Below are positions 18,639-36,720 of a stretch of DNA of 64,000 nucleotides, piece by piece. The notes under the pieces are model-generated. The model had not been told where the DNA came from. It saw nothing but the letters and a program-made list of their open reading frames with translations, and did no database searches. Source of the stretch: Phoronis australis. Its lineage: Eukaryota; Animalia; Phoronida. Each line of letters starts with the position of its first letter. Within the stretch, counting starts at the first letter, position 1. The translations under genes were made by a program, and so were the position numbers. The DNA lies in NCBI GenBank assembly GCA_002633005.1, contig NMRA01000805.1:1-64000 (forward strand), given 5' to 3'.

Positions 18639-18725
18639 TGACTTTTTAAATTAAAATGACGCGGGAAGAGTGTCTTTAAACAAATCAACCAAAATCAACG
18701 TAATTGCCATATACGAAAACGTCTT

Positions 18726-19305
18726 TTGTTGTTTATTTGTTTTTGTATTGAAGGCCTCTGACCCAAAGTACAATAAACAAAACAATCAGGCACATTTGCA
18801 CAAGCAGTCAACCCATTTAAGAGTTGTTCTCGTCTTTTAAGGGCAAAATACACATATTTAACAGCAGATATATCTGGATTAGCGAGCAGGCGTATACAGG
18901 ATTCTTGAGTTGGATGCCTCCATTGAACTTCCTTCATAAAACGTGACCTAAGTTCACAATATCCCTTGCAAACCAACAGGAAATGGTATTCATCCTCTAC
19001 AAGACCATCATTGCAAGCCATACATAATCTATTGTAATATTCCACTTTCTCGTGTCTACCCACTTCCACTTGTAGTCTGTGGTTGGAGCAACGTGAACGA
19101 GTAAACGCTTGAATAAGACTATTGTGTAGCGGTAACTTAAGATATGGTTCAAAACAGTACAGAGTCTTAAAGTTAGAGTAGAATTTAAGTTTTGCATTAT
19201 GCTCAATTTCTGATCGCCAACCTTGCTCATAACAGTCATTAACTCTTTGCGCGAAGAAACTTAAAAACGAGACTTCGCACGTGACACCTTGATTCAACCA
19301 GAAAA
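18726..19305 (-). mobile_element. 5'-truncated non-LTR retrotransposon (ORF2 C-terminus with CCHC knuckle)
   Basis: Translation WLNQGV...QRVNDCYEQGW...RCSNHRLQVEVGRH...RLCMACNDGLVEDEYHFLLVCKGY is typical of LINE ORF2 C-termini. A-rich tail. 10-bp target-site duplication AAAACGTCTT at 18716-18725 and 19306-19315. Confidence 0.85.
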
Positions 19306-19475
19306 AAAACGTCTTCTCTTGCAATGGAAACTGTTTGTGAAGGCCAATTAGTATTCTGTTTACTGTCACTGCACTGACAATTCTTATTAAAGTCGCAAGA
19401 AAACATCATAAACTGCCACTACAAGTTCAATAATATATCTTCATACTCCTAGCCTGGAGTATGGAGTCACAATCC

Positions 19476-20417
19476 CTAAAGTTCTACGGTTGCATACGGC
19501 GCACGGGATTTCATAAGACCCTCCGCAATTTCTTTCAGGCTTTTCCCGCAAATAGGGTGAACCAAACACGGTTCCAAGTCCGCTAAAGGAACTGCAACAT
19601 GGCTGTAGACGATGGCGTCGTTATGGGGTAATGCCTGTCGCTTCTTTTTCACCACACCTTCTTCTTTCCATACCCTTTCGAATTCAGAGACCCGTTTTCC
19701 CCAATACGAGATGTCAATGTCCAGAGCAACCAAAATTTGATTCCAATCGCTGGTGTTTCGCTGCCTCCCCACTTTGTCTTCAATCGACTGCAATTGGGTT
19801 TTGAAGGCTACTGGGTCCTTTTTTGTGATTAGCTTAACTGCCATGTTCAAATAGTCCATTTCGCCCTGGGCATTAGATGCCGCCTCTGTTCTAAAGACTC
19901 TCGATACACCCAGGACAGTCGTTGAAGATTTTAACATTTCTAAGGCGTCCCTAAGATTTTCTTTCGCATTGGCGGTGTTCGACCCAAGAGACAAATAGAC
20001 GACTGGTTGAGGATAGTCGCAATATTCTCTTTCGATGACTACCCCCGTCGTTTCTGCCTCCGGTATGGCGTGTGGCTTGTTGACAAACACTCTCGTCCAC
20101 GGAACGTTGAATAAGACTATTATTATTCCAGCAATATCTTCTACCATTTTCTCTATTAAGTTGAACTTGTTGCTTTTCACATAATTGGAAACCGCAGTAC
20201 AAACTGTTTCGTAATTTGTACACAATTGCGGATTATCTTCGTCAGCGGATGTTTTCACGTTCGTGGCAATATGCATAGTGATGAAGACCTCCTGAAATTG
20301 TCCAATTTCATGGGGGTAGTACCCAATCTGTGTCGAACATTTAAGATTTTTCACATACAGCATATCACGTATCTTATCCATCGTGTCCTGAAATGAATTA
20401 ATAGTCACTGCATCAAC
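19476..20417 (-). CDS. folB-folK: Bifunctional dihydroneopterin aldolase / 6-hydroxymethyl-7,8-dihydropterin pyrophosphokinase (FolB-FolK fusion), main exon
   Basis: N-domain (about 20025-20381): IGYYPHE, TNYE, FNLIE, PWTRVFVNKPHAIPEAETTGVVIER, matching FolB with catalytic E/Y/E/K. C-domain (about 19500-20003): VYLSLGSN, DYLNMAV, IEDKVGRQR, LDIDI, LPH, PLADLEP..VHP, matching FolK/HPPK. Acceptor tttctacag precedes 20417 in phase 0. Confidence 0.9.
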   Translation of the reverse strand, partial: VDAVTINSFQDTMDKIRDMLYVKNLKCSTQIGYYPHEIGQFQEVFITMHIATNVKTSADEDNPQLCTNYETVCTAVSNYVKSNKFNLIEKMVEDIAGIIIVLFNVPWTRVFVNKPHAIPEAETTGVVIEREYCDYPQPVVYLSLGSNTANAKENLRDALEMLKSSTTVLGVSRVFRTEAASNAQGEMDYLNMAVKLITKKDPVAFKTQLQSIEDKVGRQRNTSDWNQILVALDIDISYWGKRVSEFERVWKEEGVVKKKRQALPHNDAIVYSHVAVPLADLEPCLVHPICGKSLKEIAEGLMKSRAPYATVEL

Positions 20418-21177
20418 CTGTAGAAACCAAGACCCTAAACCCAATCTCCGAACAAGAGTTCCTGACTAACTTCCATATTAATTTCTTTCTTTGGTTACAT
20501 TCGCAACATCATATCTTAGAAATAGCTGATGGGATTTATATGAGACTTTCATATACTAATGCTTTGGGCACTATTCTCCAAACAACTTGGACGTGAAAAG
20601 TCTCATCTTATCGTGGGCCCTTCAGTATTACGCTTATTTTTACGATCGAAAAATACGAGCGTAAAATTACGAGAGTAGCCCACATTTTCTTCAGAGCTCT
20701 CGTGATAAACAATGTGGTAATTACAGTCGCAAAACAGAAGCGAAGTCTCGGTCGTAATTACGAGCGTATGTACGGGCGACACTTTCCCTTGAAAGGCTTA
20801 TACTACGATTTTTTGTCCTAAAATCAGCCGGACATTTTAAAAACGAGGCCAGTGTAGCAACGTTTTTTCGTACCTCCAGGACAAAAGGATGCTTCGCTAA
20901 AACTGTCAGGTAGCCAAAGCCCGTTTCAATGAATTCAAATAAAAGTACCAAAAAACACACACAGCAGAGTTTGTTGTTTTATGGCTCTGGTGCAAAACTG
21001 GTCATGGTTGTACTACCAAATACTACAAAACTGCGTTCTTGGCCCTGACGCCGATTGTGTATCTCCAAAAACAGGTGAAATCTCAGTCACATGAAACTCA
21101 TCTCAAAAAGAACCGTTGCTACGCTACGTGCATATTCTATCATCAGACTTATTTCATTCACATGAAAAACTACTTAC

Positions 21178-21198
21178 TTCTACATCCGCTACATCCAT
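21178..21198 (-). CDS. folB-folK: Putative first coding exon of the folB-folK gene (MDVADVE)
   Basis: Minus strand reads ctataATGGATGTAGCGGATGTAGAA|gtaagta. A at -3 and G at +4, consensus donor, phase 0 in frame with the exon starting at 20417. Intron 20418-21177. Confidence 0.6.
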
Positions 21199-22937
21199 TA
21201 TAGTTCACTTTTAAGCTTCCACGGTATCAACCTCCCTAAAACTACCTCTTGTACAAGTGTACGAACCACCGAGATTTTGAAAAACATTTAGCATATACAT
21301 ATATATTATCTATCAATCTCGTCTGCAAACTAGCTCAGTTATCAGTTACCGGCTCCTGAATGATATACAGCCTAGGGTTGGGTAACGTAGAACTGACGAC
21401 AAGAGTCTTAAGTTCAAATGTGTACGTCATAATTGCTATCTAATGTATAACGTTCAGGCAACTTATGTCCATGTATGCAATTCAGCTGCAAAACATTCCC
21501 GGCAGAGTCGGCAGTAATTTTTGTCAAGGAACCGGCTTACAATATATTCCCCATCATGCTAACTTGCTAACTAAACCAGGAACTCCATTGCTGAGGCTAA
21601 TTGAATGGGGATGACTATACGCAGGCCAAATTATATGCATATATAACCAGTTCAAATCCCAAGCGATATCCCAAACCCAGAAGTCATTCCCCAGATATTG
21701 GTAAAGGAAATAATGAGACCAACTAAGTACTAAGTGGTATTTCTTCTAAAAGTTAGTTTCGAAGCATCGAAACTCTCCGAGAACGGATGTTTTGTGACTG
21801 TAAATACGTAAGCATAAACTGGATTAAGTTCGTTATGAGTGGCGCTAGTGTACAGTTGCACTGTAGGCGTGACAATTGCACTGCCTAGAAATCACACGAT
21901 TGGGGTACGTCTGGCATGGTGGCACTAAGTTTCGAAGCGGTAGGCATTATTAGAAGGTTCAGTGAGACAGGTTTGCTTGTATTTGTAAAAATGTTGGGAC
22001 TGAGAACAGTTCACTAGTTCAGCTTTAGGTACACTTTTTCTTCAAAATGGCGGCCCACATAGCAGTGTTGAATTTCGGTGGCAGTTAATAGGTTTCATTA
22101 AGAAAATGGCTCCTGCTGGGTTGGCTGGGCATATGATGCCTGCGAATAGAGATGAGCATTTGCGTGATCTTTTAGGCTGTTTTGAGCGAGAGATTGCCAG
22201 TTTTGTTGACCCCTTGACCCACATCATAGACTCAGTGGTGGCTTTTCATAACCTTTACTGCTTGCAAGCCGGAAGTTGAAATTTGGCAGAAAATTCAGAT
22301 ACAATTCAGACACTTTGGGTTTGCAAAAATGTAGCTGGTAGACACCTACCTTTCTCCTGATTTCCGTAATCTGGAGAGTTTTGGCCGTCGAACTTCATTG
22401 TCTGTCAGTTCGTCAGTAATCGCAGTGCAAATGGTGGCTTTGGGCCAGGATAAAAGCTGATGATGTTTGCTCGTTTTTAAAGTAGCCAGCTGCACTTCCC
22501 GTAGTCGTAAAAGATGGAAAATTGACGTTGTGCAGGGCACAACGCACGGTTCATATGTTCAGGTTTCGTACATCTTGTGGCACAGGCTGTTGGAGCTGCC
22601 AACTAAGACCTGTTTTTTCAAGACCAAAAACTGTTGCGTGCCACCCTTCTGTTTAGCGACTGAAAAATATGTTGCGATTTCAGATAGCCTTCAAACAACC
22701 TTAATAGCAAAAAATCTAGTTGGTGGCAACCTATTTTTACCATGGCCTGGAATCTTCAGGAAATTGGCATTCAGAATCTAGTGCCTTTAGCTTAGGTCTA
22801 ACAGTGACAGGGAAGTTGTGGTTGGGTTTACCTTTTGGACCTCGCATCCTCTTTCGGTGTTAGTGAAAGGGCCAAAGATATAAGACAGAATGAAGTTTCT
22901 GTGGCCATGCGTAGCGGTAGTAATGTGAAACGACTAA

Positions 22938-23591
22938 GGTGGCACTGAATAGTTAGGCTGCGGCCGCGGCCAATTTGCACTGCCAAAATATTGAAATTTT
23001 GGGGTAGGCCAAATGAGTTTGGGAGCATTTTGTAGGTGGGCATTGCACGTAGGCTCAGTGAATGTGGTTTGCTTGTATTTGTGAACATGCTGTGAATAAA
23101 AAAGGCCACTTTCTTGGCTGTAGCTGCACTCTTCTTCAAGATGGCGGCCCCCGGCTGCAATTGTGCATTGTTGGGTAGCGACCGAGAAATTGGCTGTGAT
23201 TTTAGGTAGCCCTCAAACAAGCAAGACTTGCCAAAAAACTAGTTGGTTGACAGTACTTTTGGACCACATATTCGGAATCGGTAGGAAATTTGCTTTCAGA
23301 CTAATGTTGGCTTTAGTCGTGCATCGACAGGGAAGTGGTGTTTTTGGGGTGAAAAGTGCCGATTTTGCATTTTTTTGCCCTTATTTTTCTTAGTCTAGCT
23401 TGGTTTTCAGTGGGAATGAAATGGTCAAAAATACAAGAAAGAATGAAGTTTCTGTGCTCATCTTCTGGGCTTTTTATGTGAAATAATTGAAAACATGCCA
23501 TTCTTTGCATCCTGTTTTTGACAGAGTGAAGAAAAGGTGACAAATCAAGTGACGTGTGTTTTGCTGGGCAAAACCCAGTGAGAACTGTTCT
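22938..23591 (+). repeat. Interspersed repeat family (inverted copy at 61440-62083; older partial copies at about 21920-22320, 8300-8480 and 10770-10870)
   Basis: Colinear reverse-complement similarity, e.g. GGTGGCACTGAA...GCGGCCAATTTGCACTGCCAAAATATT and GTCGTGCATCGAC.GGGAAGTGGTG...GGGGTGAAAAGTGCCGA. Confidence 0.8.
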
Positions 23592-24581
23592 GTGCCTCCT
23601 AACGACTCGACAGAGTGGAAGAAAGGCAGGGAGTTCAGTGACGTATGCACCGCCAAACCCAATGAGAACTGAACAGTGCCTCCATGTGCCTAATATGCAC
23701 CTAACTTTAAAGGCCTGCATGTCCTTACATTATCACCACCGTCCACTACTCACAGTGAGTGCTTGATCTCATGGATAATCCGAATACAAGCAATTAAAGG
23801 TTACTCGATTATGACTGCATGATAATGGCTTGATTACGAAACTATTACGTCATTAATTGAAAACGGTAACGACCTTACTCAAAACACGTTGGCTGCACAA
23901 GATGTGAACACAAGAGTTGCTCATCAACAGTATTTACACAACCAAACTTCAGTATTTTTATCGTAAATATTTTTATTCTGCCAAACATAGCATAATTTTA
24001 GTACATTTTAAACTTTTCGTTTTTAGCGTGCTAAACGTAGCGAAATGCAGCTTATTAATTCTAGATGGAAGTAACTATATCGTGTGTGAAAATTATGTCT
24101 AAAAATTTTAAAAAATAAATCAGTGATTATGTAAAACTCCGATCCAATTTAAAAGCAACTAATACAACGAGATTACGACGTTTCATATCGCCAATTAAAC
24201 ATTTAGCAATGTTTCTCAAGGTTTTAAATCTTAGGCCTGTTCAAAATTCCTGAATAATAGTTCGCCCGCCTTAAAGAATCTAGGAAAAAGATGAACACGA
24301 AAATTATATTCGACGAAAAGTGTTTTTCTGAGTCCACCATTCCATCAAGTTTACAGTGGGGACACATTCTCCCCTCTGTATCGAGACCACTCTGAAACCT
24401 TCCCTTAAAGCGGCTATAAAGTTAACCCCATCAACACTCACTAGCAAACTTGAAAAACTTCAGTACAGGACCCTGAAATGTTTTCCAGGATTTTGCTGCT
24501 GGGTGGAGGATTTGCTACTGAGGTCGGGCATTCCCTCACTTGGCATACCTTAGGCGTAAGCTCTCTTTTGTGGTGGGCCGT

Positions 24582-24848: not shown

Positions 24849-25680
24849 AGATATGTGCCAATTATTTTTAAATTTCAATTGTCAGTGATAAAAGCCACCG
24901 GCTAATGTTTTTTGTTTACCCCGAAAACTGACAATAGAGAAATTAACTATCCCTCCATCACAACTGAAAAAGAAATTTGATTTATACCACTTACCGTCAT
25001 GAAATTGGTTATGAATTGATCAAATTGGAGGTGATTTCAAGGCTTTGAAAGAAGTGGCGGTTCGTGATTTTTTTAAAGCAGCTGGAACGCGAAAACTCGT
25101 AAAAATACATTTTGAACAGATCGTGGAGAATTTACTTCTAGGGGATGCTAACGCGAGTGTTGCTCACGTTGAATATTGCAAGAATTTCTAGAAAAAGTCG
25201 CCAGGTTCACTATTTTTGAAATACATACGAAATATAAAGTCTTTCATCCCAATGCAACTTCAAATCCACCCCGCCTCCTAATAATACGCATGCTCTCAAA
25301 GAATTTCCCAAAGTGCATGATCGCCACGGTTTAGATTACATCAACGGTCGAAGGTAACATTTTCCATGTATGGGAAACTTGCTACGTCTACCATGTCTTG
25401 TCATACCTAATAAGGAGACGTGCTTTGCTTTGTGGGGAAAAGTGACGAGCAGTTGATAGGTCTTTTTTTAATTTTGAAACTAAAGGAAAAATGCTTTGAC
25501 ATCAACAGAAATTCAAAATCTTTACGAACAGGTTGTAAAAATACATGGTGAGCAGACTGAATTTTGTTTCAGTGGCGGGGAACTACTTTAAATATAGTCT
25601 GTTTTTCGCGTCCCAAGCCTCTTTTGAGTCTTGGCACTCTGTGCCCAAGAGTATCAGTGTGGATGTTAGTGGTTAATTGG

Positions 25681-25762
25681 ACGGACGCCGCACGGACGCA
25701 GGACGGACGGACAGGGATGACGGCATAATACGTCCACATATAAATATGTGGGCGCATAAAAA
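25681..25762 (-). mobile_element. 5' end fragment of the HINE/DINE-like family
   Basis: Reverse complement TTTTTATGCGCCCACATATTTATATG...GCCGTCATCCCTGTCCGTCCGTCC matches 8482-8570. Confidence 0.6.
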
Positions 25763-26032
25763 GGATGATTACTGACAGATATCAAAATTACAAAGGCAAT
25801 TTCTAAGATATAACAATATAATACAAGAGATACTAAACGATCTAGTTACAAATACACAGACAAACACAAATAAACATAAAAACACAGAAAGGCTATCAAT
25901 GAGGATGTCAGTACATAATAAGTCACTTGATTTTTTGTACAACAATAGCCTTTACCACGTTGAACCTGACCAGCTAGTGTTTTCTGCGCATGCGCCTATA
26001 GGTATAAACTTCATACCCAAATTACCATAATC

Positions 26033-26630: not shown

Positions 26631-29258
26631 GAAGGCCGAGTGCGAATCCAGTGTTCATCCACATCCCCAACCAGAACACGCATTGCCAGGCTATCTGGCT
26701 TGTAGACCTTAGCAACGGAGGTTCTATAAATGTTATGCTATCTGGTCGAGTACATGGTAAACAAGTGAGCCCTGTAAATTACTGGCGAATTTTCAAAGGC
26801 TACGAACCAACAGCTGTAGGCGCACAATAGCCGGTTTCAGAAAGCCACGTAAATATGACAGATGTGTTTTTAACTTCGGGTGATTGACGGTAATTGGAAT
26901 CTGATGGCTTAGCTATATTTCGCCTTGACTAAAAGTGAAAGTCTAGTTAGGCCTTTTATGCGCCTAAAATTACCGTAATGGCGTTCTGTTTCCGTTACCA
27001 GCACTTCGAAACCATAAGCAAATAAAAAAAAAACGTTTCAGGGTTTTACTAAGGTTGGCCAGATCTAAAATTATGATGTCGAAAATGGTTCATGGTACGT
27101 ATTGCCTGTTGCTGCTTCATTCGGCAACAGATCAAGATTGAATGAGCTTGGTGTTAACTTTATACCCAAAAGGCTTCCTTTAAGAATTTAACAAACACAG
27201 CTAAAAAGTAGGCCCACATGACACAAAATACTAGCCACTGATAGAGTTTACTAGTTTTCATTTCATGCACTGGCCGGTTTGTGCGCGTGCCTTAACGGAA
27301 ATGCCCATTTTTGTTACAGAGCATCCTGGACACCTCGAATGTTTTCGTAGCCTCAAATTGTCCCTCGGAGGCGTTTCATACCTACGCATGTGCGACCTTC
27401 AATCAGAGCAGAAAGTCATGTGACTGTCAAAATCGGGAATGCCGACGAATGAGCCGAGATACGCCAGTGATTATGGCGTAATAACAGGAGGACGACCATG
27501 GACTAACTGACAGAATGATGTCGTGTGCTATGTAGATGGACATATGAAACCGGCTCTTGGCCAAATTTTAAATTTTTCATTTCTTAAAATTTTCGTTACT
27601 AAATACAGTGTTGCTGGTTTCGTATGTGTAATTCTTACGTGTTACTTGTTATTCTGTAGAAACAGGTAAAACACATTAAAATCCAGTAAAACATCTTTTA
27701 ATATATATTTTAAGCGAATTTTAAAGTGTTTTACCTGTTTCTACATTTTACCCGGTCTCGACATATGTTATTTTTAACTTGTTATTCTGTATTATATTAG
27801 TGTTAGTGATTAATATTTTATGGTAAATAAACGAATCCCTTTTCTCTGATGATTGAAGTTCACACAAATTTTGGAATGAAATCTTCCCAGGCCAGTTATG
27901 AGCAGCGTGAATAATTTCGTATAATATTAGTCATTATCACTTCTCCACCATAAAAACTATAATTGCCGAGTTTAAACTTGTAACATCCTTTGAAGCAATT
28001 CACATGGCGTCAATGTTGTGTCAATCGCTGCCAGGAATGAATTGGCGACTGATACAGTTACGTTGAATGATATGAATGTACTTACGGGACCAAATGTACT
28101 CAAGTTGATTGAAAAATCCGCGCGCCTATCAAACATTAAATATTATAAATAGCTAAACACCAAAAATAATAAGCCCCTTAATAAAAAATTTGGGGCCAAA
28201 CCCAAGAACTGAATCGTCCAAAATAACGAATGTCACAATTTGTCATCTTGAAGACTAATAAAAATATCCAATTAGCTTATAAAGTTAAATTTAATTTTGT
28301 CCGTCTTCTCTTGTAAATGTGCCATTTAAAAAACCTTGATGTCCCAATCTGGTATGCAATGCTTTGTTTTTTGGAAAATGTAGCAGTGACAACAGGTGGA
28401 ACCGTTTAATTGAGTCGCCGGCCAGGGGCTGAGACGCAGATATGAAACATATCCGAGGGATTATTAGAGGCTAAGAGCGTGTTTTGGATGGCCTGGTACA
28501 TAGATTCTCGACTTCGAAAAATCGAATGCAATATTTGTTGTCCATAGATTGCCTCGAGGCTATTTTGTAGTTTGGACTACGGGAGGAAACGTACTCGAGT
28601 TCTCTTAAAATTGCGTCATCATCAGGTAATTAACATAATCCAGCCCAGCGTGTGTCGATTAAAAATGCCCACTTCAACAAAAAAGCTTACAATTAACTCA
28701 TAATTTCTACCATTTGAATTTTTAACCCAGATTGTGTCTTCCCTTGGCTTCATTGTTGTTGACTTTGGAATTTTTAGCTCATTGTATTTATTTCGGATTA
28801 CACAGAGTTACATGCTTAGGCCTACGCCTGTAGGTGTGACGGGAGCACCGTCTGTTTGTGGAGTCGTGAGTCAAGTTTGTTCGTTTCCAAATTACCGGTA
28901 GCTAGGGGTGTCTATTATTGGTGAATCCCCCTATTTGATACTTCCGATGACGAAACTTTCACTTTGCATTTTGATTGGTTTTTACATTTAACTAGAGACC
29001 CGTATTTATACGTAATTTGGTACATTCGCAGCGCGAATTCGCCCATAAAAATGCTCAGACTTTGGATTCTACCGGGTCTCATTTCTATCTGGCGAGAGTC
29101 TCACATTTTTAACTCTGTCGGGCCCCGTTTCTTTCCGGTTAGAGTCTCAGCCTTTTAAATTTAACTTTAATTAGGATCAACGTTAGCTTAAATTTTTTTC
29201 ATTTACTTGCCTTTGGGGACTGACGTAGATGATTTCGGAGTCGATGTTGACAATGACG

Positions 29259-30595
29259 ACGGAAGCTAATGATGTGTTGTAAGTTTGTACATTTGTGATT
29301 TATATTTAGCGCATAATAAATTCATTATATATATCTACTTCTCTCTGGTTTCGCTGTCTATAAGTTGTCACCATGCTAGTATGCGATACGAACGAGTAAA
29401 AAAGTACACAACGCTGCAATTATTTTTATCAGCTACGAACAGTCGAACGTTAGATACCAAGTAAAGGTGCTAGTCGCTCCACCGATTCTCCTTGTATACG
29501 TCATGGGATTCAGCGATTGAGCATTTTAAAATATGCTGGTCAAATATTGCAGCTTAAAAAAATCCTAATGCAAAGCACGCCGTTTACTACGTAAGCCAAC
29601 ACCGTGAAAACAACAGCACACACGATGGCCGGCGCGGACGGATCGAGAGCCTCAAAGCCCGGCGTCAGGCTCACCATCCTGGTCCCGCGGCGAAATTATT
29701 GTAACGTCACGCCCACACGCCGCCCTACAACTGTTTAGCCAGTGTCTGAACAATAAAAGGTCAACAATGAGTCATGGTCCCACCAGCGGGATTTTATGAA
29801 TCCGAGCCATGTTGCAGGACCCCTGATAGCGACGAGATGTAGGTTGTCAAATGTACGCCCTCTTGTGGCCGAACACGACCTAACAGTTTGTCAGAGTCTC
29901 TAACTCGTAAAAACATCAGAAAACTTCANACGGAAGCTAATGATGTGTTGTAAGTTTGTACATTTGTAATTTATACTTAGCGCATAATAAATTCATTACA
30001 TATATCTACTTCTCTCTGGTTTCATTGTGTATAAGTTGTCACCATGCTAGTATGCGATACGAACGAGTAAAAAAAGTACACAACGCTGCAATTATTTTTA
30101 TCAGCTACGAACAGTCGAACGTTAGATACCAAGTAAAGGTGCTAGTCGCTCCACCGATTCCCCTTGTATATGTCATGGGATTCAGCGATTGAGCATTTTA
30201 AAATATACTGGTTAAATTCTGCAGCTTAAAAAAATCCAAATGCAAAGCACGCCGTTTACTACGTAAGCCAACACCGTGAAAACGACACCACACACGATGG
30301 CCGGCGCGGACGGAGAGCCTCAAAGCCCGGCGTCAGGCTCACCATCCTGGTCCCGCGGCGAAATTATTGTAACGTCACGCCCACAAGCCGCCCTACAACT
30401 GTTTAGCCAGTGTCTGAACAATAAAAGGTCAACAATGAGTCATGGTCCCACCAGCGGGATTTTATGAATCCGAGCCATGCTGCAGGACCCTTGATAGTGA
30501 CGAGATGTAGGTTGTCAAATGTACGCCCTCTTGTGGCCGAACACGACTTAACAGTTTGTTAGAGTCTCTAACTCGTAAAAACATCAGAAAACTTC
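29259..30595. repeat. Near-identical direct duplicate (29259-29928 / 29930-30595) joined by a single N; probable uncollapsed alleles
   Basis: Colinear copies with scattered SNPs and indels, N at 29929 exactly at the junction. Confidence 0.8.
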
Positions 30596-30807
30596 CAAGT
30601 TCGGTCGCAGTTACAAAGAAGCTTTCAAAATAGTTTGCCATTGTAGATGGGAGTACGACTTTAAAGGATTTGACCTGTGTTCGCTCGAATAATTCGAAAT
30701 GTATATTTTGCCGACAAAAATCTCATGAATAGATACGTGGTTTCCGGTATAGCCAGTGGGAAGACCAAGTTCGAGGAAGTTGTCAATTTTGTGGCGTCTT
30801 CCCAAAG

Positions 30808-30876
30808 ATGATCAGGGCTATTCTGGTTTTCAACAATCATGGAAAGCCCAGGGTTTCAAAATTCTATGAATATTAT
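30808..30876 (+). CDS. AP3S1: AP-3 complex subunit sigma, exon 1
   Basis: MIRAILVFNNHGKPRVSKFYEYY, donor gtgagt; 69 nt. Confidence 0.95.
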
Positions 30877-31011
30877 GTGAGTATGTTTTACGTCGATCGG
30901 AAAACAAGTTGGTTGGCGACTCCGACGGAGACGAGTTCAGGGATATTATTCATTGTCACTGGTGACTGGGTCTAGGAATCGGATATTGTTTACTTTCAGA
31001 GATAAGATATT

Positions 31012-31160
31012 CCTGGCGTGTGTTCAGTAACGCTAGGGCCTACGCTAGGACCTAGGTAATATCTATCCAACGTCACGTGTTACCATTTAAATTACACGGT
31101 AACATCTCTCGTAGTCTTGCGAAGTTTTGCTTTTTAGTGAAGTCCTAGCATTACTGAACG
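31012..31160 (+). mobile_element. Copy of ~145-bp MITE family in AP3S intron 1
   Basis: GTTCAGTAACGCTAGG...ATTACACGG...AAGTTTTGCTTTTTAG...TACTGAAC shared with 63365-63510. Confidence 0.5.
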
Positions 31161-32575
31161 GGATTCTGGACTGTGCCCTTGCGCCATTTGTGCGTGAAAA
31201 AATAAAATGGCACAAGTACATTGCAACAGTGCGTACCGCAGGTGCATTTTTTAAAATGCAACACTCTTCCGAAGATGCAAGGTTCTAGTCAACTTTGAGG
31301 CAGTCATGTAAAACACGACTCTGTTCATCTTATTTCGATTGGCCTTAGGGTTTCAGTTTCATATCTTACCAATTTAATTACTCTCCCTTTGTCTGGTGAG
31401 CACAAGGTTTTGAAAAAGGCATACTTTCTATCATCAAACCTGGTCAGGAATATCCCTGTACTTTATGTATTTACAGTAATCCGTCTCCAAAAAGTGGCAA
31501 AATCTTGAATCACAGCATAGTCTGTTGATATGTTCTGAATCCTCTCTTTGTGTTGATTCCAAAATGGATAAAACACATTGATTGTTCTTTTCTTACTTCT
31601 GTGGAAAGAATTACTTTCAGTATGCTTTTAAGCATTTCCCATCAGCGTGGTCTCTATTGATAATAACTGGTCACAATCTGATGCCGTCACAAAATTATCT
31701 TTGACTATCCCTACTCTAACCCTAACCCTAGGAAGGGTAGCCTTATCCCTAAAGGGGAGGGGACACAAACCCTATGAAAGTGCAGATGCCCAATGGCTAA
31801 GATTGAAGACCAGACTTTCTTTTTCGTTGTGAACAGTGTAATATGTGTAATATTCAAGTCATTTTACAAAATACCGTAGTATAGTAAGAAACGACTTTTT
31901 CTGAAACTCTGAATAGACAAGGTCAAAGAATTTGATGTTTCTGGAATCAGCATAAAAAGAAGCCAGAAAACACTTTAGAATTAACAAGTGGCTACGATTT
32001 AATAGTCAATTTGTAAGCAATAACGGTGTTCCATTAATGTCAATTGTCTGCACTAGTCGAATAAAGCAATTTCTCATTTTGAGAATCAGGCAATCACTGA
32101 CCATTAATGTCATGAAGCAAAATCTCCTTGTCGCCTTTTGGCATGATGAAAACATGTCTCGTGCCTTTTGTAGTGTTATTAATTGGGTTAGTGTTCAAAA
32201 CCGCAAATGTTTTTCAAGCAGAATATTGCTTGGAAGACAATTTGGTTAGTATAATTGGAACAGCTCCACTATTAGTAATGACAAGTAGCATTTCATCATA
32301 AGAATATGTTTATTGATGACCCCCTCCCCCCTACTTTCTTGCTTCCTTTGAAACTTTCTAAAAAATATATGGCAGTTGAATCATTCATTGAAAGTTTCCC
32401 TCAGTTAGTAAATTTTAATTGAACTGTAAAGAATAACAATTAATTCCGAATTGTAGTTTATAAAACCAGACACAAAGTCCTACTGACAATCTAGGAGTGG
32501 GATATTTTGTGGATATCAACCAGAAATTCAATGTATGCTTGAAAATCATCTTTAAATTGTTGGCTCCTATTGCAG

Positions 32576-32667
32576 CCTGAAGATATGCAGCAACAGATAA
32601 TTCGAGAGACATTCCAGTTGGTGTCCAAACGCGATGACAATGTGTGCAATTTTCTGGAGGGTGGCAG
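32576..32667 (+). CDS. AP3S1: AP-3 complex subunit sigma, exon 2
   Basis: tgcag|PEDMQQQIIRETFQLVSKRDDNVCNFLEGG|gtacgt; 92 nt. Confidence 0.95.
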
Positions 32668-33460
32668 GTACGTATAGTATCAAAAACTTCCCTTAACAAG
32701 TAAAATATGTTATGCAAGAGTTTCACATGTTCCAAAGGAAATTCACTTCATACTCTATGCTATTTATATATTACGTTGCTCAACAAAATTTTACCCAGAA
32801 AGTTTCCTTATGATGAAAGAATAGTTTCCATGTCCAAACAGATAAAGTGTGTTCAATGGCCTTCAACTTGTCTGACCGGTATTGGGATGTGTAAATCAAT
32901 TGCATACTATTGCTCCCCCTTTTTATTATAAAAGGCAATTGCTATCATAGTAAAGTCATTTTTAGACCAGTTCAGTGTTCTCATTAAGATTAAAGTTGAG
33001 CTCGGTTTGAATGACGAAACGCTGTCAATCGCTGTGTTTGCATTTTAAGTTGCAAAGGGGAGACCACCGTTTTCTGTGTTCTGGGTGCGAAATTTAGTTA
33101 GGTAATAATTTCCAGCAAAATGTAGTGTACACTTGACTGAAGAATGTGATGGTTGTGACTCAACATCTTGCAGGTTGAGACCACTTAAAAACAAGTCTTG
33201 TCACAACTGGTGAGACAGTGGCTTAAAATTTGAGCGTGGGGTTCAGAATTTTGAGCATGGCCATCACATTCAAAAAGCCTGGAGAGAACAATGCAGTTTG
33301 TTGAAGATCAAGCTATTTGGTGATTTTCAAGCTTAGTCTACAAGTGTGAAGGAAATTGGGATTTTGACAAATGGGCAGTTGAATAGTGTGTTGTTGGTTT
33401 TGACTGTATTTCTATATTACTCAAGTGCCAATCATGTTTGTAATTTAATTGCCATTTCAG

Positions 33461-33572
33461 TTTAATAGGAGGCTCAGACTACAAGCTCATCTACAGACAC
33501 TATGCCACTCTTTATTTTGTGTTCTGTGTTGATTCTTCCGAGAGTGAATTGGGAATTCTTGACTTGATTCAG
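33461..33572 (+). CDS. AP3S1: AP-3 complex subunit sigma, exon 3
   Basis: ttcag|LIGGSDYKLIYRHYATLYFVFCVDSSESELGILDLIQ|gtaagt; 112 nt; hallmark adaptor sigma motif. Confidence 0.97.
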
Positions 33573-34590
33573 GTAAGTGACGTGGAGCCTCAGAAAACTG
33601 TTTCAGGTGGGTTTGTTTGTCTTGAAAAATCTCAGAAGTGTTTAGAATGAAGTCTTCTCTTCTTCTGATAGTCTCCAGCTTTCTTGAATTTACATTAACA
33701 CACTACAGTTTCTTTAAAATGCTGGTGAATCAATGATAAGCTTGTGTTTGCTAAGTAGGCAAAAGCTGATGTACATTTCAGAGACAAAAAATTGCAGGAA
33801 AATGCAAGATCACTCATTAAGTCTTCGTGAGATATCGCCATGTATTACAAACGAGGCATGTGATCAAATTTTGCTTCTTTCGCGAGTCTTGCATCTTTGG
33901 AACTCAGCCCTGAAATACGCTCTTCTACACTGTTCCTACACTGTGGTGCTGGACAGCAGCAATGGTGTGTTAACAGCCAGTTTTGTTTGTCCTAATGGCA
34001 AATCGAACCTCAGCAATGCACATGTCCACAATATCATCCATCATCTTGAATATGTAATTAGGTAAAGTAAACAAACCAATTCACTCATTTACCATGTAAG
34101 TGGATTGGGGGGAGAAAGCTGTTTGAACCTGTATATCAACTAGATTGTGAAAACGTTGCTATAAATCTGTCGTTCCCAAAATATTCACCATTATTACAAA
34201 GTCCTTTTTCCAGCTGAGAACCACATTTAAAATGGTTGGTGATTTTAGTATTAATGTGGGTATTTGCAAGGCCAATCACGTTTTTACCAAGTCCACCTAA
34301 GGTCAGTTGTGTCGATAAAGTATATTAAAATTATACTTTTTGGTCATAACGTCCCTTCGTCAGTGATGTAGCACATTAAGGGAGTGAGTTACGGAACAAA
34401 TATTGCCTTGTAACAGACTTTAGATGTGTTATGATCTTGTGTCTGTTATGTTTGCATCTTACGCTTGTGCTCACTGCTGACAAAGGGAGGTTATGCACAG
34501 AACTATGGGTATTTTGATTTGATATAGGAAGTACTGTGTCACTGTTAAACTGAATATTATTGGAGCTCTTGTTTACTCCCTCTGTTTTAG

Positions 34591-34662
34591 GTGTTTGTTG
34601 AAACCTTGGACAAGTGTTTTGAGAATGTCTGTGAACTGGACCTCATCTTTCATGTAGACAAG
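34591..34662 (+). CDS. AP3S1: AP-3 complex subunit sigma, exon 4
   Basis: tttag|VFVETLDKCFENVCELDLIFHVDK|gtaagc; 72 nt. Confidence 0.97.
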
Positions 34663-36612
34663 GTAAGCACCACTGTCGATGATTCAGTCCGAGTATGCCC
34701 ACGAATGGGGGAGTTGTGGGTGGGGGGAATTCTGTTGTTTTGGTGCGCACCTGGTTACAGCTAATTAGAGTCCATACTGTGAAACTGTGATGTTTGACAG
34801 TTTCTCCTGCCAGTGTTGAGGTGAAATGTAGAGGGCTGGGTGGATCAGCTTGATCAATCTGACTGCAGAGCTTTGTCTGAGTTGAGCAAAGATACAACTT
34901 ACCATGTCTTATTGTGTCTGTTGTTGTGTAGTGTGTAAGAAGATCAGACTTGTGGGTTTGATGTTTTGTAAAAAATAGAGATGAGTTACTATTAAGCAGT
35001 TCCAGTCAGAAGTTCATTGCTTGGTAGACGCAGTTGTCATTTTTAAATCTTTGCTGACACACCCAGTATGTGCCGAGTTTATGGTGATCAAACAAAAGTT
35101 GATATTCCCCACCACTCTGATGGTGAATCCCATTTGCACATGGCCGTCATGACGGGGGGCCCTCTACCTTTGCTTAGCTGTCGTCATTACTTTTGGCTTG
35201 TACTGTATAATAGTTATGAGTCTTGACCGCACAAGGTTCAAATAAGGTGTCTCATAGGTTATCAAAATTCTGAATTAGATGATTTGCTTTTATTCATGAA
35301 GCCTTTCTTGAGAATGAGTAGTTTGCACTTGATCCTCGAAACTTTGTGGTGATTTCGGCACAACACCAAACATGACTTAGAGCATGTTCGTCTGGCCAAA
35401 AGTTCCATTATATTTTGGCACTTTATTTTGGAACAGTTTTGTAGACCTTTTGGGAACTTTCCTTGCGCATTTTAGGCTCTGAAATATTACTTTTTTTACA
35501 CTCCTTTTTTGAAAAAGTCAGAAGGGTCAGTGTCTGAGTGTCTGATCAAATAGTAATAAATCCAATCAGAATTGAGGAAATCACATGCAACTTGAATAAG
35601 GTGCACCTATTTGGTAGATTATGGTAATCATCTATGTTCACTATTTGAGCAAAGGTCAAAAGGTCGAAATCGAAATTGAGGTTAATGGGTATGAATTGTC
35701 AACAGTTTAAATTACATCAAGCAATGCCTCTCCTGTTCCGATAAATAAGAAATAAATAGTGTTGTATAACATGTAATCTCCTTTATAATCTGATGTTTGG
35801 TGGAGATTTGCGGCTGTTTTTCAGCTAGTACTTTGAAACCACATGCCCATTCAGTCATTGTCCATGGAAGAAAAATGCTGGTGAGACCAGTAAGGCAACC
35901 AACGACTCTGCGGGTGGCCGGCTAAAAGTGAATCCTGAAATTGTTACACTTTCATGACTGCTTTGCTGCAGTCACCAGGTGGCGAGACCATCTTGCCCAA
36001 GAACTGCCAAACAACCTGTCATGGAAGTTGACAACATTTCATGCATCAGCTCAAAGTAGTTCATCATGGAGACAGTTTATAAGGGAAGCGAAAGAAATGA
36101 AGCCCAGTTTTCAGGAACACACAAATGGTTGCTTGCCAGTGTCTTTGATGCCTGACATGGCAAGATGATGTCATGCTTGTGTTCAACTTCAAGACATCTG
36201 AAAATAATGCATTTGGTGCCATGTAGAAATAACTCTGACCAGACATCAGTAGGATAATACACGCTAGTGTTGACTCTCAAAGTAAATGGCTTTGGCGTGT
36301 CTTTGTTGTGATATCAGTGTGTGGTACTGGCACCCTCTGTTGGCAGTGATGAAGGCTTCAATCTTCTCAAGGACCAACTGTGTGTTTGTTATCTCGGCAG
36401 TGCACGGATTGTTGAGGTTGTATATCACAGATGTGATTCACCGCTAGGGGGTGCTGTTGATCGTCAACGAACTGAATGTATGAAATCTCCATGGTGACCA
36501 GAGGTCATAACTCGTAGATGTAATTGACCACTAGAGGGCACTATTATTCATTTCTATGTTGCTAGTGCTGTGGTGTTGCTCTACAGGATATCTTGTTGCT
36601 GTTCATTGACAG

Positions 36613-36720
36613 GTTCACTGGATCCTCGCTGAGCTGGTCATGGGGGGTATGGTGTTAGAGACAAACATGACAGAGATCTGTACAAGGATAGATGAACAAA
36701 GCAAACTGGAGAAAACAGAG
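36613..36720 (+). CDS. AP3S1: AP-3 complex subunit sigma, exon 5
   Basis: gacag|VHWILAELVMGGMVLETNMTEICTRIDEQSKLEKTE|gtaggg; 108 nt. Confidence 0.95.

Follow-up and report, generated by a model that had tools for sequence, protein, structure and literature searches.

A spliced FolB-HPPK fusion gene of bacterial-type ancestry in Phoronis australis, with a putative role in non-folate pterin metabolism

Contig NMRA01000805.1 of the phoronid Phoronis australis carries a gene in which a FolB-like domain is fused to an HPPK-like domain. The locus raises the questions of whether this gene belongs to the animal, where it came from and which pathway its product serves. We analyzed a stretch of 64,000 nucleotides of this contig (the window), for which a first-pass annotation, made from the letters alone, had proposed horizontal transfer of bacterial folate-pathway enzymes. 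From sequence comparisons, we give about an even chance to the combined reading that the locus is an expressed host gene, likely derived from an old transfer related to Anaerolineae, whose product likely feeds a non-folate pterin pathway.

The gene is encoded on the minus strand, within an intact stop-to-stop frame at positions 19476-20465. Translation from an ATG at 20381 to the stop codon at 19476-19478 yields a protein of 301 aa, in which a FolB/FolX-like (tunnelling-fold) domain (20031..20357) precedes an HPPK-fold domain (19569..19997). Both domains lie within one coding exon (19476..20387), as the first-pass annotation had said, and the motifs that it quoted are found in the translation. 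The frame, which it had put at ~320 aa, is intact but shorter: the protein has 301 aa, and a minor isoform that includes exon A (21178-21198) reaches 310 aa. The domain assignments are based on alignments and on Pfam matches that exceed the curated cut-offs (E 1.6e-22 for FolB, E 2.1e-21 for HPPK). In addition, an AlphaFold model of the fusion protein (pLDDT 82, from an alignment of 7 rows) was matched by Foldseek to solved DHNA and HPPK structures and, as the top match (E 1.5e-19), to S. pneumoniae SulD (PDB 2CG8). The FolB domain was matched to solved DHNA with a TM-target of ~0.9.

The fusion gene is transcribed in two of the three RNA runs (X5 and X6), with almost no reads in X7. Stranded reads of X5 and X6, which come from a different study than the DNA runs, cover the coding sequence in one orientation at a depth of 20-50 and the intron at 0-7, a pattern that fits a minus-strand transcript. 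Two alternative first exons, also on the minus strand, are joined to a splice acceptor at 20388. The coding part of exon A (21178..21198) contributes seven codons in frame; its 5' end is not fixed. It is separated from the coding exon by intron A (790 bp, GT..AG, 20388..21177), and the junction from 21178 to 20387 is crossed by five X5 reads with five starts; among the matches listed, no read of X6 or X7 crosses it. Exon B (23754..23799) is non-coding, and six molecules end at 23799. The corresponding intron B (3366 bp, GT..AG with donor GTGAGT, 20388..23753) is full of high-copy repeats and is based on loose read ends at 20387 (12 X5 and 10 X6 reads) that match 23754-23783 once and exactly, the exon joint itself not being among the matches listed. 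By these counts, exon B is used more than exon A (12+10 vs 5+0 reads in X5+X6). Exon B also contains a six-codon upstream ORF (23754-23772), whose stop codon spans the splice junction before the main ATG, and which may lower the rate at which the major isoform is translated. Among the matches listed, RNA reads differ from the assembly in the coding sequence by two synonymous variants and one non-synonymous variant, too few for a selection test.

The fusion is therefore a genuine host gene that is spliced and expressed, in agreement with the first-pass annotation. Bacterial contamination or a chimeric assembly might be suspected, because the DNA runs all come from one sample that is possibly the source of the assembly, and because no contig joins the fusion gene to the neighboring AP-3 sigma gene, from which it is separated by an N at an assembly join. 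However, we judge this explanation to be extremely improbable: the GT-AG spliced reads from a separate study refute it, the introns contain host repeats, and the GC content of the coding sequence is 0.44 vs 0.40 for the window. Moreover, DNA depth over the coding sequence is similar to that of the flanks, a check that had been suggested for this locus. In X2, it is 37.8, and unique bins of the flanks have 33-51 except for a single one at 22.7; in X3, it is 4.2 vs 0-7.7.

The AP-3 sigma gene, of which five exons were located (30808..36720, plus strand), is animal-like, with 36 of the 37 residues of exon 3 identical to AP-3 sigma-1 in PDB. It is head-to-head with the fusion gene. The first-pass annotation had correctly named this neighbor, but had placed it ~10 kb away; its exon 1, at 30808, is ~7 kb from the upstream exon of the fusion gene. 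The N, at 29929, falls within a duplicated block of ~650 bp (window 29250-30600), which probably represents two alleles joined by the assembler, so the link between the two genes crosses an assembly join. On its other side, the 3' UTR of the fusion gene runs into a stop-free frame over the remnant of a high-copy repeat (18695..19405, minus strand), where DNA depth is 500-1800 (over 18700-19341) vs 6-8 in the coding sequence. We presume this remnant to be LINE-like. The frame has no Pfam match, so the flanking LINE that had been proposed is borne out as a high-copy repeat but not in its identity. Very high-copy repeats are also transcribed at 22897-23750, within intron B, and at 25400-25839, with a summed contig depth of ~100,000 in X2. 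At 27148-27801, where no long ORF is listed, RNA reads run opposite to the fusion gene at a depth of 4-9 in X5 and X6, which may reflect a repeat or a plus-strand transcript that lacks annotation.

All four aldolase residues are kept in the FolB domain, as had been claimed from its motifs: E25, Y57, E77 and K102 align with E21, Y53, E73 and K98 of E. coli FolB. The catalytic DHNA residues are given as Glu22/Tyr54/Glu74/Lys100 in S. aureus numbering (PMC11328599). The domain passes the cut-offs of PF02152 (80.5 bits vs 31.8) and TIGR00526 (67.1 vs 45.05), but misses those of the FolB equivalog models TIGR00525 (52.9 vs 72.15) and NF008614 (73.8 vs 184), as well as that of the FolX model NF008418 (59.7 vs 152). 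It scores higher with FolB than with FolX models, whereas the copies of Anaerolineae and Branchiostoma do the reverse. In the FolB tree, the domain belongs to a FolX-like group together with E. coli FolX (86/85), and E. coli FolB is split off by a 100/99 branch, although a forced placement beside E. coli FolB is not rejected with the 124 columns of the FolB domain alone (p 0.178). A protein annotated as FolX in Chlamydia functions as an aldolase (PMC4161248), and FolX itself is described as gammaproteobacterial (PMC3405516). A motif of the form HE[IV]G is present in the fusion protein and in most eukaryote copies, but none of the 77 bacterial FolB domains taken from GTDB loci has it.

The HPPK domain likewise passes its models (PF01288, 76.9 bits vs a cut-off of 25.7; TIGR01498, 62.4 vs 54.1). 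It has the Mg-binding DxD motif and keeps the equivalents of N10, T42, Y53, N55, E77, R82, R84, D95, D97 and H115, while those of R92, R121 and P43 are missing. Thus, of the catalytic arginines in loop 3, R82 is kept and R92 is not: the motif reads VALDIDI, so the equivalent of Arg92 is Val218 (codon at 19728..19730, minus strand), a substitution that the first-pass annotation does not mention. At a depth of >40, no RNA-read variant at this codon is among the matches listed. Arg92 is kept in 249 of the 276 distinct HPPK domains in which the motif was readable (25 of 301 lacked a readable motif). In E. coli, the R92A mutation lowers HPPK turnover by orders of magnitude, an effect for which our literature search found no source. 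The equivalent arginine, with the correspondence inferred from spacing, is described as key for catalysis (10.1101/2021.11.10.468163). Across the family, HPPK domains also differ from the E. coli enzyme at positions H115, R121 and F123, and a motif HVAVPLA replaces the E. coli R121-F123 region in both the fusion protein and Anaerolineae. The fusion protein, like its counterparts in Branchiostoma and Lingula, has a long insert that follows DxD. HPPK-only trees leave the place of the domain unsettled, and it can group with bacterial HPPKs of a Val92 type; the test does not discriminate for or against descent from that subfamily (p 0.53 vs 0.40), for sequences drawn in with this protein as the query.

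Named eukaryotes with homologues are Branchiostoma, Lingula, the octocoral Paramuricea, the acoel Symsagittifera, Sphaeroforma arctica and a protist represented by an MMETSP transcript. The architecture is thus common to other phyla and was already published for Branchiostoma (PMC4224340), contrary to the uniqueness implied by the first-pass annotation. The Branchiostoma folB-folK gene ('FOL1-like' in RefSeq) resembles the Phoronis gene in being a host-encoded, transcribed two-domain fusion without DHPS. However, the two proteins are only 37-38% identical, outside the 76-78% seen among Branchiostoma copies, and Branchiostoma keeps Arg92 and lacks His115, whereas the fusion protein lacks Arg92 and keeps His115. 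Lingula has one FolB-HPPK copy with a degenerate FolB domain and a separate FolB. Sphaeroforma arctica (XP_014155004), the MMETSP protist and three further records carry a C-terminal SDR domain, belong to the same clade as the fusion protein and mostly have the HE[IV]G motif; these fusions differ from the Phoronis protein in the third domain and in replacement of the Tyr53 equivalent, which the fusion protein keeps. In the two SDR domains scanned, the top NCBIfam model was pteridine reductase, below its cut-off. Proteins with a fused domain of the pteridine-reductase-like type are P0030, P0046, P0059/P0242, P0115 and P0250. A search for longer homologues, in which the best 7995 candidates were scored, yielded a single protein and provides weak evidence.

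Among bacteria, the nearest relatives are in Anaerolineae and then Planctomycetota (best 80 of 439 loci). The Anaerolineae genes (Aggregatilineales/Phototrophicaceae), which are sister in trees, encode folB/folX and folK as fused or adjacent genes beside folE, with 37-40% identity to the fusion protein. The bacterial copies have Arg92 in all 80 loci and lack both HE[IV]G and the insert after DxD, the opposite of the fusion protein on each count. BLAST gave 207 bits with Chloroflexota, 186 with Branchiostoma and 75-79 with fungal FOL1, and the ESM Atlas returned nothing more specific than generic clusters of bacterial FolB-HPPK proteins, at 0.90.

A concatenated tree (LG+G4) of 72 rows, hand-chosen from ~260 proteins and 80 loci, joined 11 eukaryote-type and 16 Anaerolineae-type rows with 100/100 support and placed fungal FOL1 elsewhere. 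In a 34-row mixture-model tree, the eukaryote and Anaerolineae clade has support of 99/94 and the eukaryote copies 93/94. All three concatenated trees place the fusion protein, a long branch (1.96 in the 34-row tree), among the eukaryote copies, with one starred node (95/88) in the mixture-model tree; support for the eukaryote-copy clade itself is moderate, at 89/42, 86/89 and 93/94, and never starred. The direction of transfer depends on rooting outside the Chloroflexota/Planctomycetota group. The gene is integrated, spliced and nested among bacteria in the trees, in line with a bacterial-type ancestry, and AU tests speak against a FOL1 fragment. The first-pass annotation is supported on the bacterial ancestry but not on the donor, which it suggested to be proteobacterial; the domain belongs to the FolX-like group, and its nearest bacteria are Anaerolineae.

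Three histories deserve comparison. Fungal and amoebozoan FOL1 proteins also have FolB followed by HPPK, and one could regard the gene as what is left of an ancestral opisthokont/amoebozoan FOL1 after loss of the DHPS domain, without any transfer; the second FolB domains of fungi likewise belong to the broad FolX-like group, and FOL1 fission is frequent (PMC4224340). Yet FOL1 has a C-terminal DHPS domain, which is absent here since the fusion protein stops after HPPK, and it usually has two FolB domains and forms a separate clade. AU tests against fungal FOL1, amoebozoan FOL1 not having been identified in our sequence set, reject its union with the eukaryote copies for each domain as well as for the concatenation (p 0.026 for FolB, 0.00016 for HPPK and 0.045 concatenated, two of these narrowly). 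The per-domain phylogenies that the annotation had recommended thus set the gene apart from fungal FOL1, as do the BLAST scores, and a FOL1 remnant appears very unlikely. A separate transfer, specific to the lineage of Phoronis and with a bacterium similar to Anaerolineae as its donor, the function being the same, is rather unlikely, although Chloroflexota are the top BLAST matches, the coding sequence is intron-free and grouping of the fusion protein with Anaerolineae alone is not rejected (AU p 0.336). Animal-only and holozoan-only clades are also weakly rejected (p 0.012-0.039, under LG+G4, which can reject true clades), so that the gene tree departs from simple vertical descent. On the other hand, bacteria with short branches would top BLAST regardless, the three concatenated trees place the protein among eukaryote copies, HE[IV]G is absent from the bacterial domains, and the long insert after DxD is as in Branchiostoma and Lingula. 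We therefore favor one old acquisition, which would be common to amphioxus, Lingula, the octocoral, the acoel, Sphaeroforma and the protist, and would have been followed by many losses and perhaps by eukaryote-to-eukaryote transfer. Shared inheritance within a wider clade, which the first-pass annotation had named as an argument against its proposal, thus partly applies, because the gene is also present in further phyla of animals and in a unicellular holozoan.

The genomic surroundings in the bacterial relatives speak against a folate role. In 50 genomes, a hand-chosen subset of the 80 loci consisting of MAGs without completeness values, folP was found above its cut-off in five, and folC in all 50; a further five genomes included one with folP. 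The five folP genomes are three Planctomycetota and L067 and L075; L053, L067 and L075 are outside the sister clade, and L054 and L073 are absent from the tree. Because folP is rare and folE is a flanking gene in 68 of the 80 loci, the module likely serves a folP-independent pterin pathway. A folM-like SDR gene is directly upstream in L053, L062, L073 and L075. Such folM-like genes clustered with pterin genes were predicted to serve non-folate pterins (PMC1971073), and FolX and FolM make tetrahydromonapterin (PMC3405516). The E. coli FolX-FolM pathway is comparable in that FolX nests within the clade when FolB domains are compared in a tree and folM-like neighbors and fusions occur among the relatives, but, unlike the fusion protein, it has no HPPK. 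A pteridine reductase/FolM model, which rings on generic SDRs, found no match above cut-off in the 50 genomes. Two specific roles in Anaerolineae were considered and are unsupported. For a methanopterin route, the MptH-like model TIGR00284 gave no match above cut-off in the 50 genomes (three were below it), and for a phenylalanine-hydroxylase cofactor, pterin-dependent hydroxylases are in only five of the 50.

In our working model, host GTP cyclohydrolase I, an enzyme that animals have of their own, would supply dihydroneopterin, either free or as the triphosphate. Its side chain would be cleaved or epimerized by the FolB/FolX domain, giving 6-hydroxymethyl-dihydropterin or dihydromonapterin, and the HPPK-fold domain would bind pterin and nucleotide while having, in this copy, poor or altered activity as a pyrophosphokinase. 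The last step, to a reduced pterin that serves as cofactor, antioxidant or pigment precursor, would fall to a pteridine reductase, an enzyme that several relatives carry as a fused domain. More speculatively, and at somewhat less than an even chance, a hitherto unrecognized folP-independent pathway of FolE, FolX/FolB-like, divergent FolK and FolM-like proteins, found in Anaerolineae and scattered marine eukaryotes, entered the eukaryote or holozoan line once, and animals of several phyla retain it for the synthesis of a pterin that is neither biopterin nor folate, with a new job for the HPPK fold. This job is possibly to strip phosphates from pterin triphosphate or to pass the pterin to another acceptor.

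A more conventional view is that ordinary DHNA and HPPK make dihydropterin pyrophosphate for folate, and that the synthesis is completed by an unseen folP of the host, by some other enzyme or by a symbiont. Both Pfam domains above cut-off, the four DHNA residues and the equivalents of D95, D97, R82 and H115 are in its favor, as is the architecture of SulD, which has the same domain order and folds. SulD, however, has only 19% identity to the fusion protein and serves folate synthesis together with folP. A folate role was also the reading of Maguire et al. 2014, who nevertheless found Branchiostoma to lack folP (PMC4224340). We consider it unlikely for the Phoronis protein, which lacks Arg92, an arginine described as key for catalysis; in addition, when the window was searched by tblastn with SDR, DHPS and FolE queries, the best E was only 0.18, with no DHPS match. 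The folate framing of the first-pass annotation is weak because the nearest bacteria mostly lack folP. In Sphaeroforma, folB-folB and folK-folP genes of the ordinary kind are present as well (PMC4224340), and the fusion there is thus extra to folate synthesis, consistent with the non-folate pterin pathway that we prefer.

The type of fusion gene is already published, and the case merely adds to the known transfers into animals, without being a surprise; the folP-free orphan pterin module is the part worth pursuing. Maguire et al. described the Branchiostoma folB-folK fusion without folP as a probable prokaryote-derived transfer, with folK grouped with Planctomyces maris, and noted doubtful copies in Nematostella and Trichoplax (PMC4224340). 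The main text of that paper mentions neither Chloroflexi nor pteridine reductase, and the main text of PMC4729200 mentions neither folate nor pterin. The wider animal distribution, the Anaerolineae link and the reductase fusion were not found in our literature search, which left most subscription journals outside; the supplements of both papers may list such genes. Why only the first half of the folate pterin branch is retained in amphioxus was a question that Maguire et al. did not answer. That the nearest bacteria mostly lack folP and protist relatives have a fused pteridine reductase suggests that it never was half of a folate pathway. A single small protein suffices to test this question, which draws attention to pterins other than biopterin in animal chemistry.

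Several variations among the relatives were also observed. Most of the 80 bacterial loci (L001-L080) have folE beside folB/folX-folK, without folP or an MptH-like gene, and this orphan pterin operon is often flanked by metK, a Wzc-like kinase gene and genes that we take to be dTDP-sugar-like. Val92-type bacterial HPPK folds were found in P0090, P0110, P0142, P0150, P0166, P0174, P0175, P0176, P0035 and P0039, and that of P0175 is fused to a glycosyltransferase. In the place of Arg92, Lingula has His and Symsagittifera has Cys. In Lingula (P0029/P0182 and P0038), the fusion's FolB domain lacks the catalytic residues, which a separate FolB-only gene retains. The catalytic FolB Tyr is replaced (by N, L, V or I) in P0030, P0046, P0242, P0244, P0250, P0189 and P0221, which are copies from the octocoral, the acoel, Sphaeroforma and the protist. 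DHNA becomes an oxygenase when this Tyr is changed to Phe, and so these copies may make dihydroxanthopterin.
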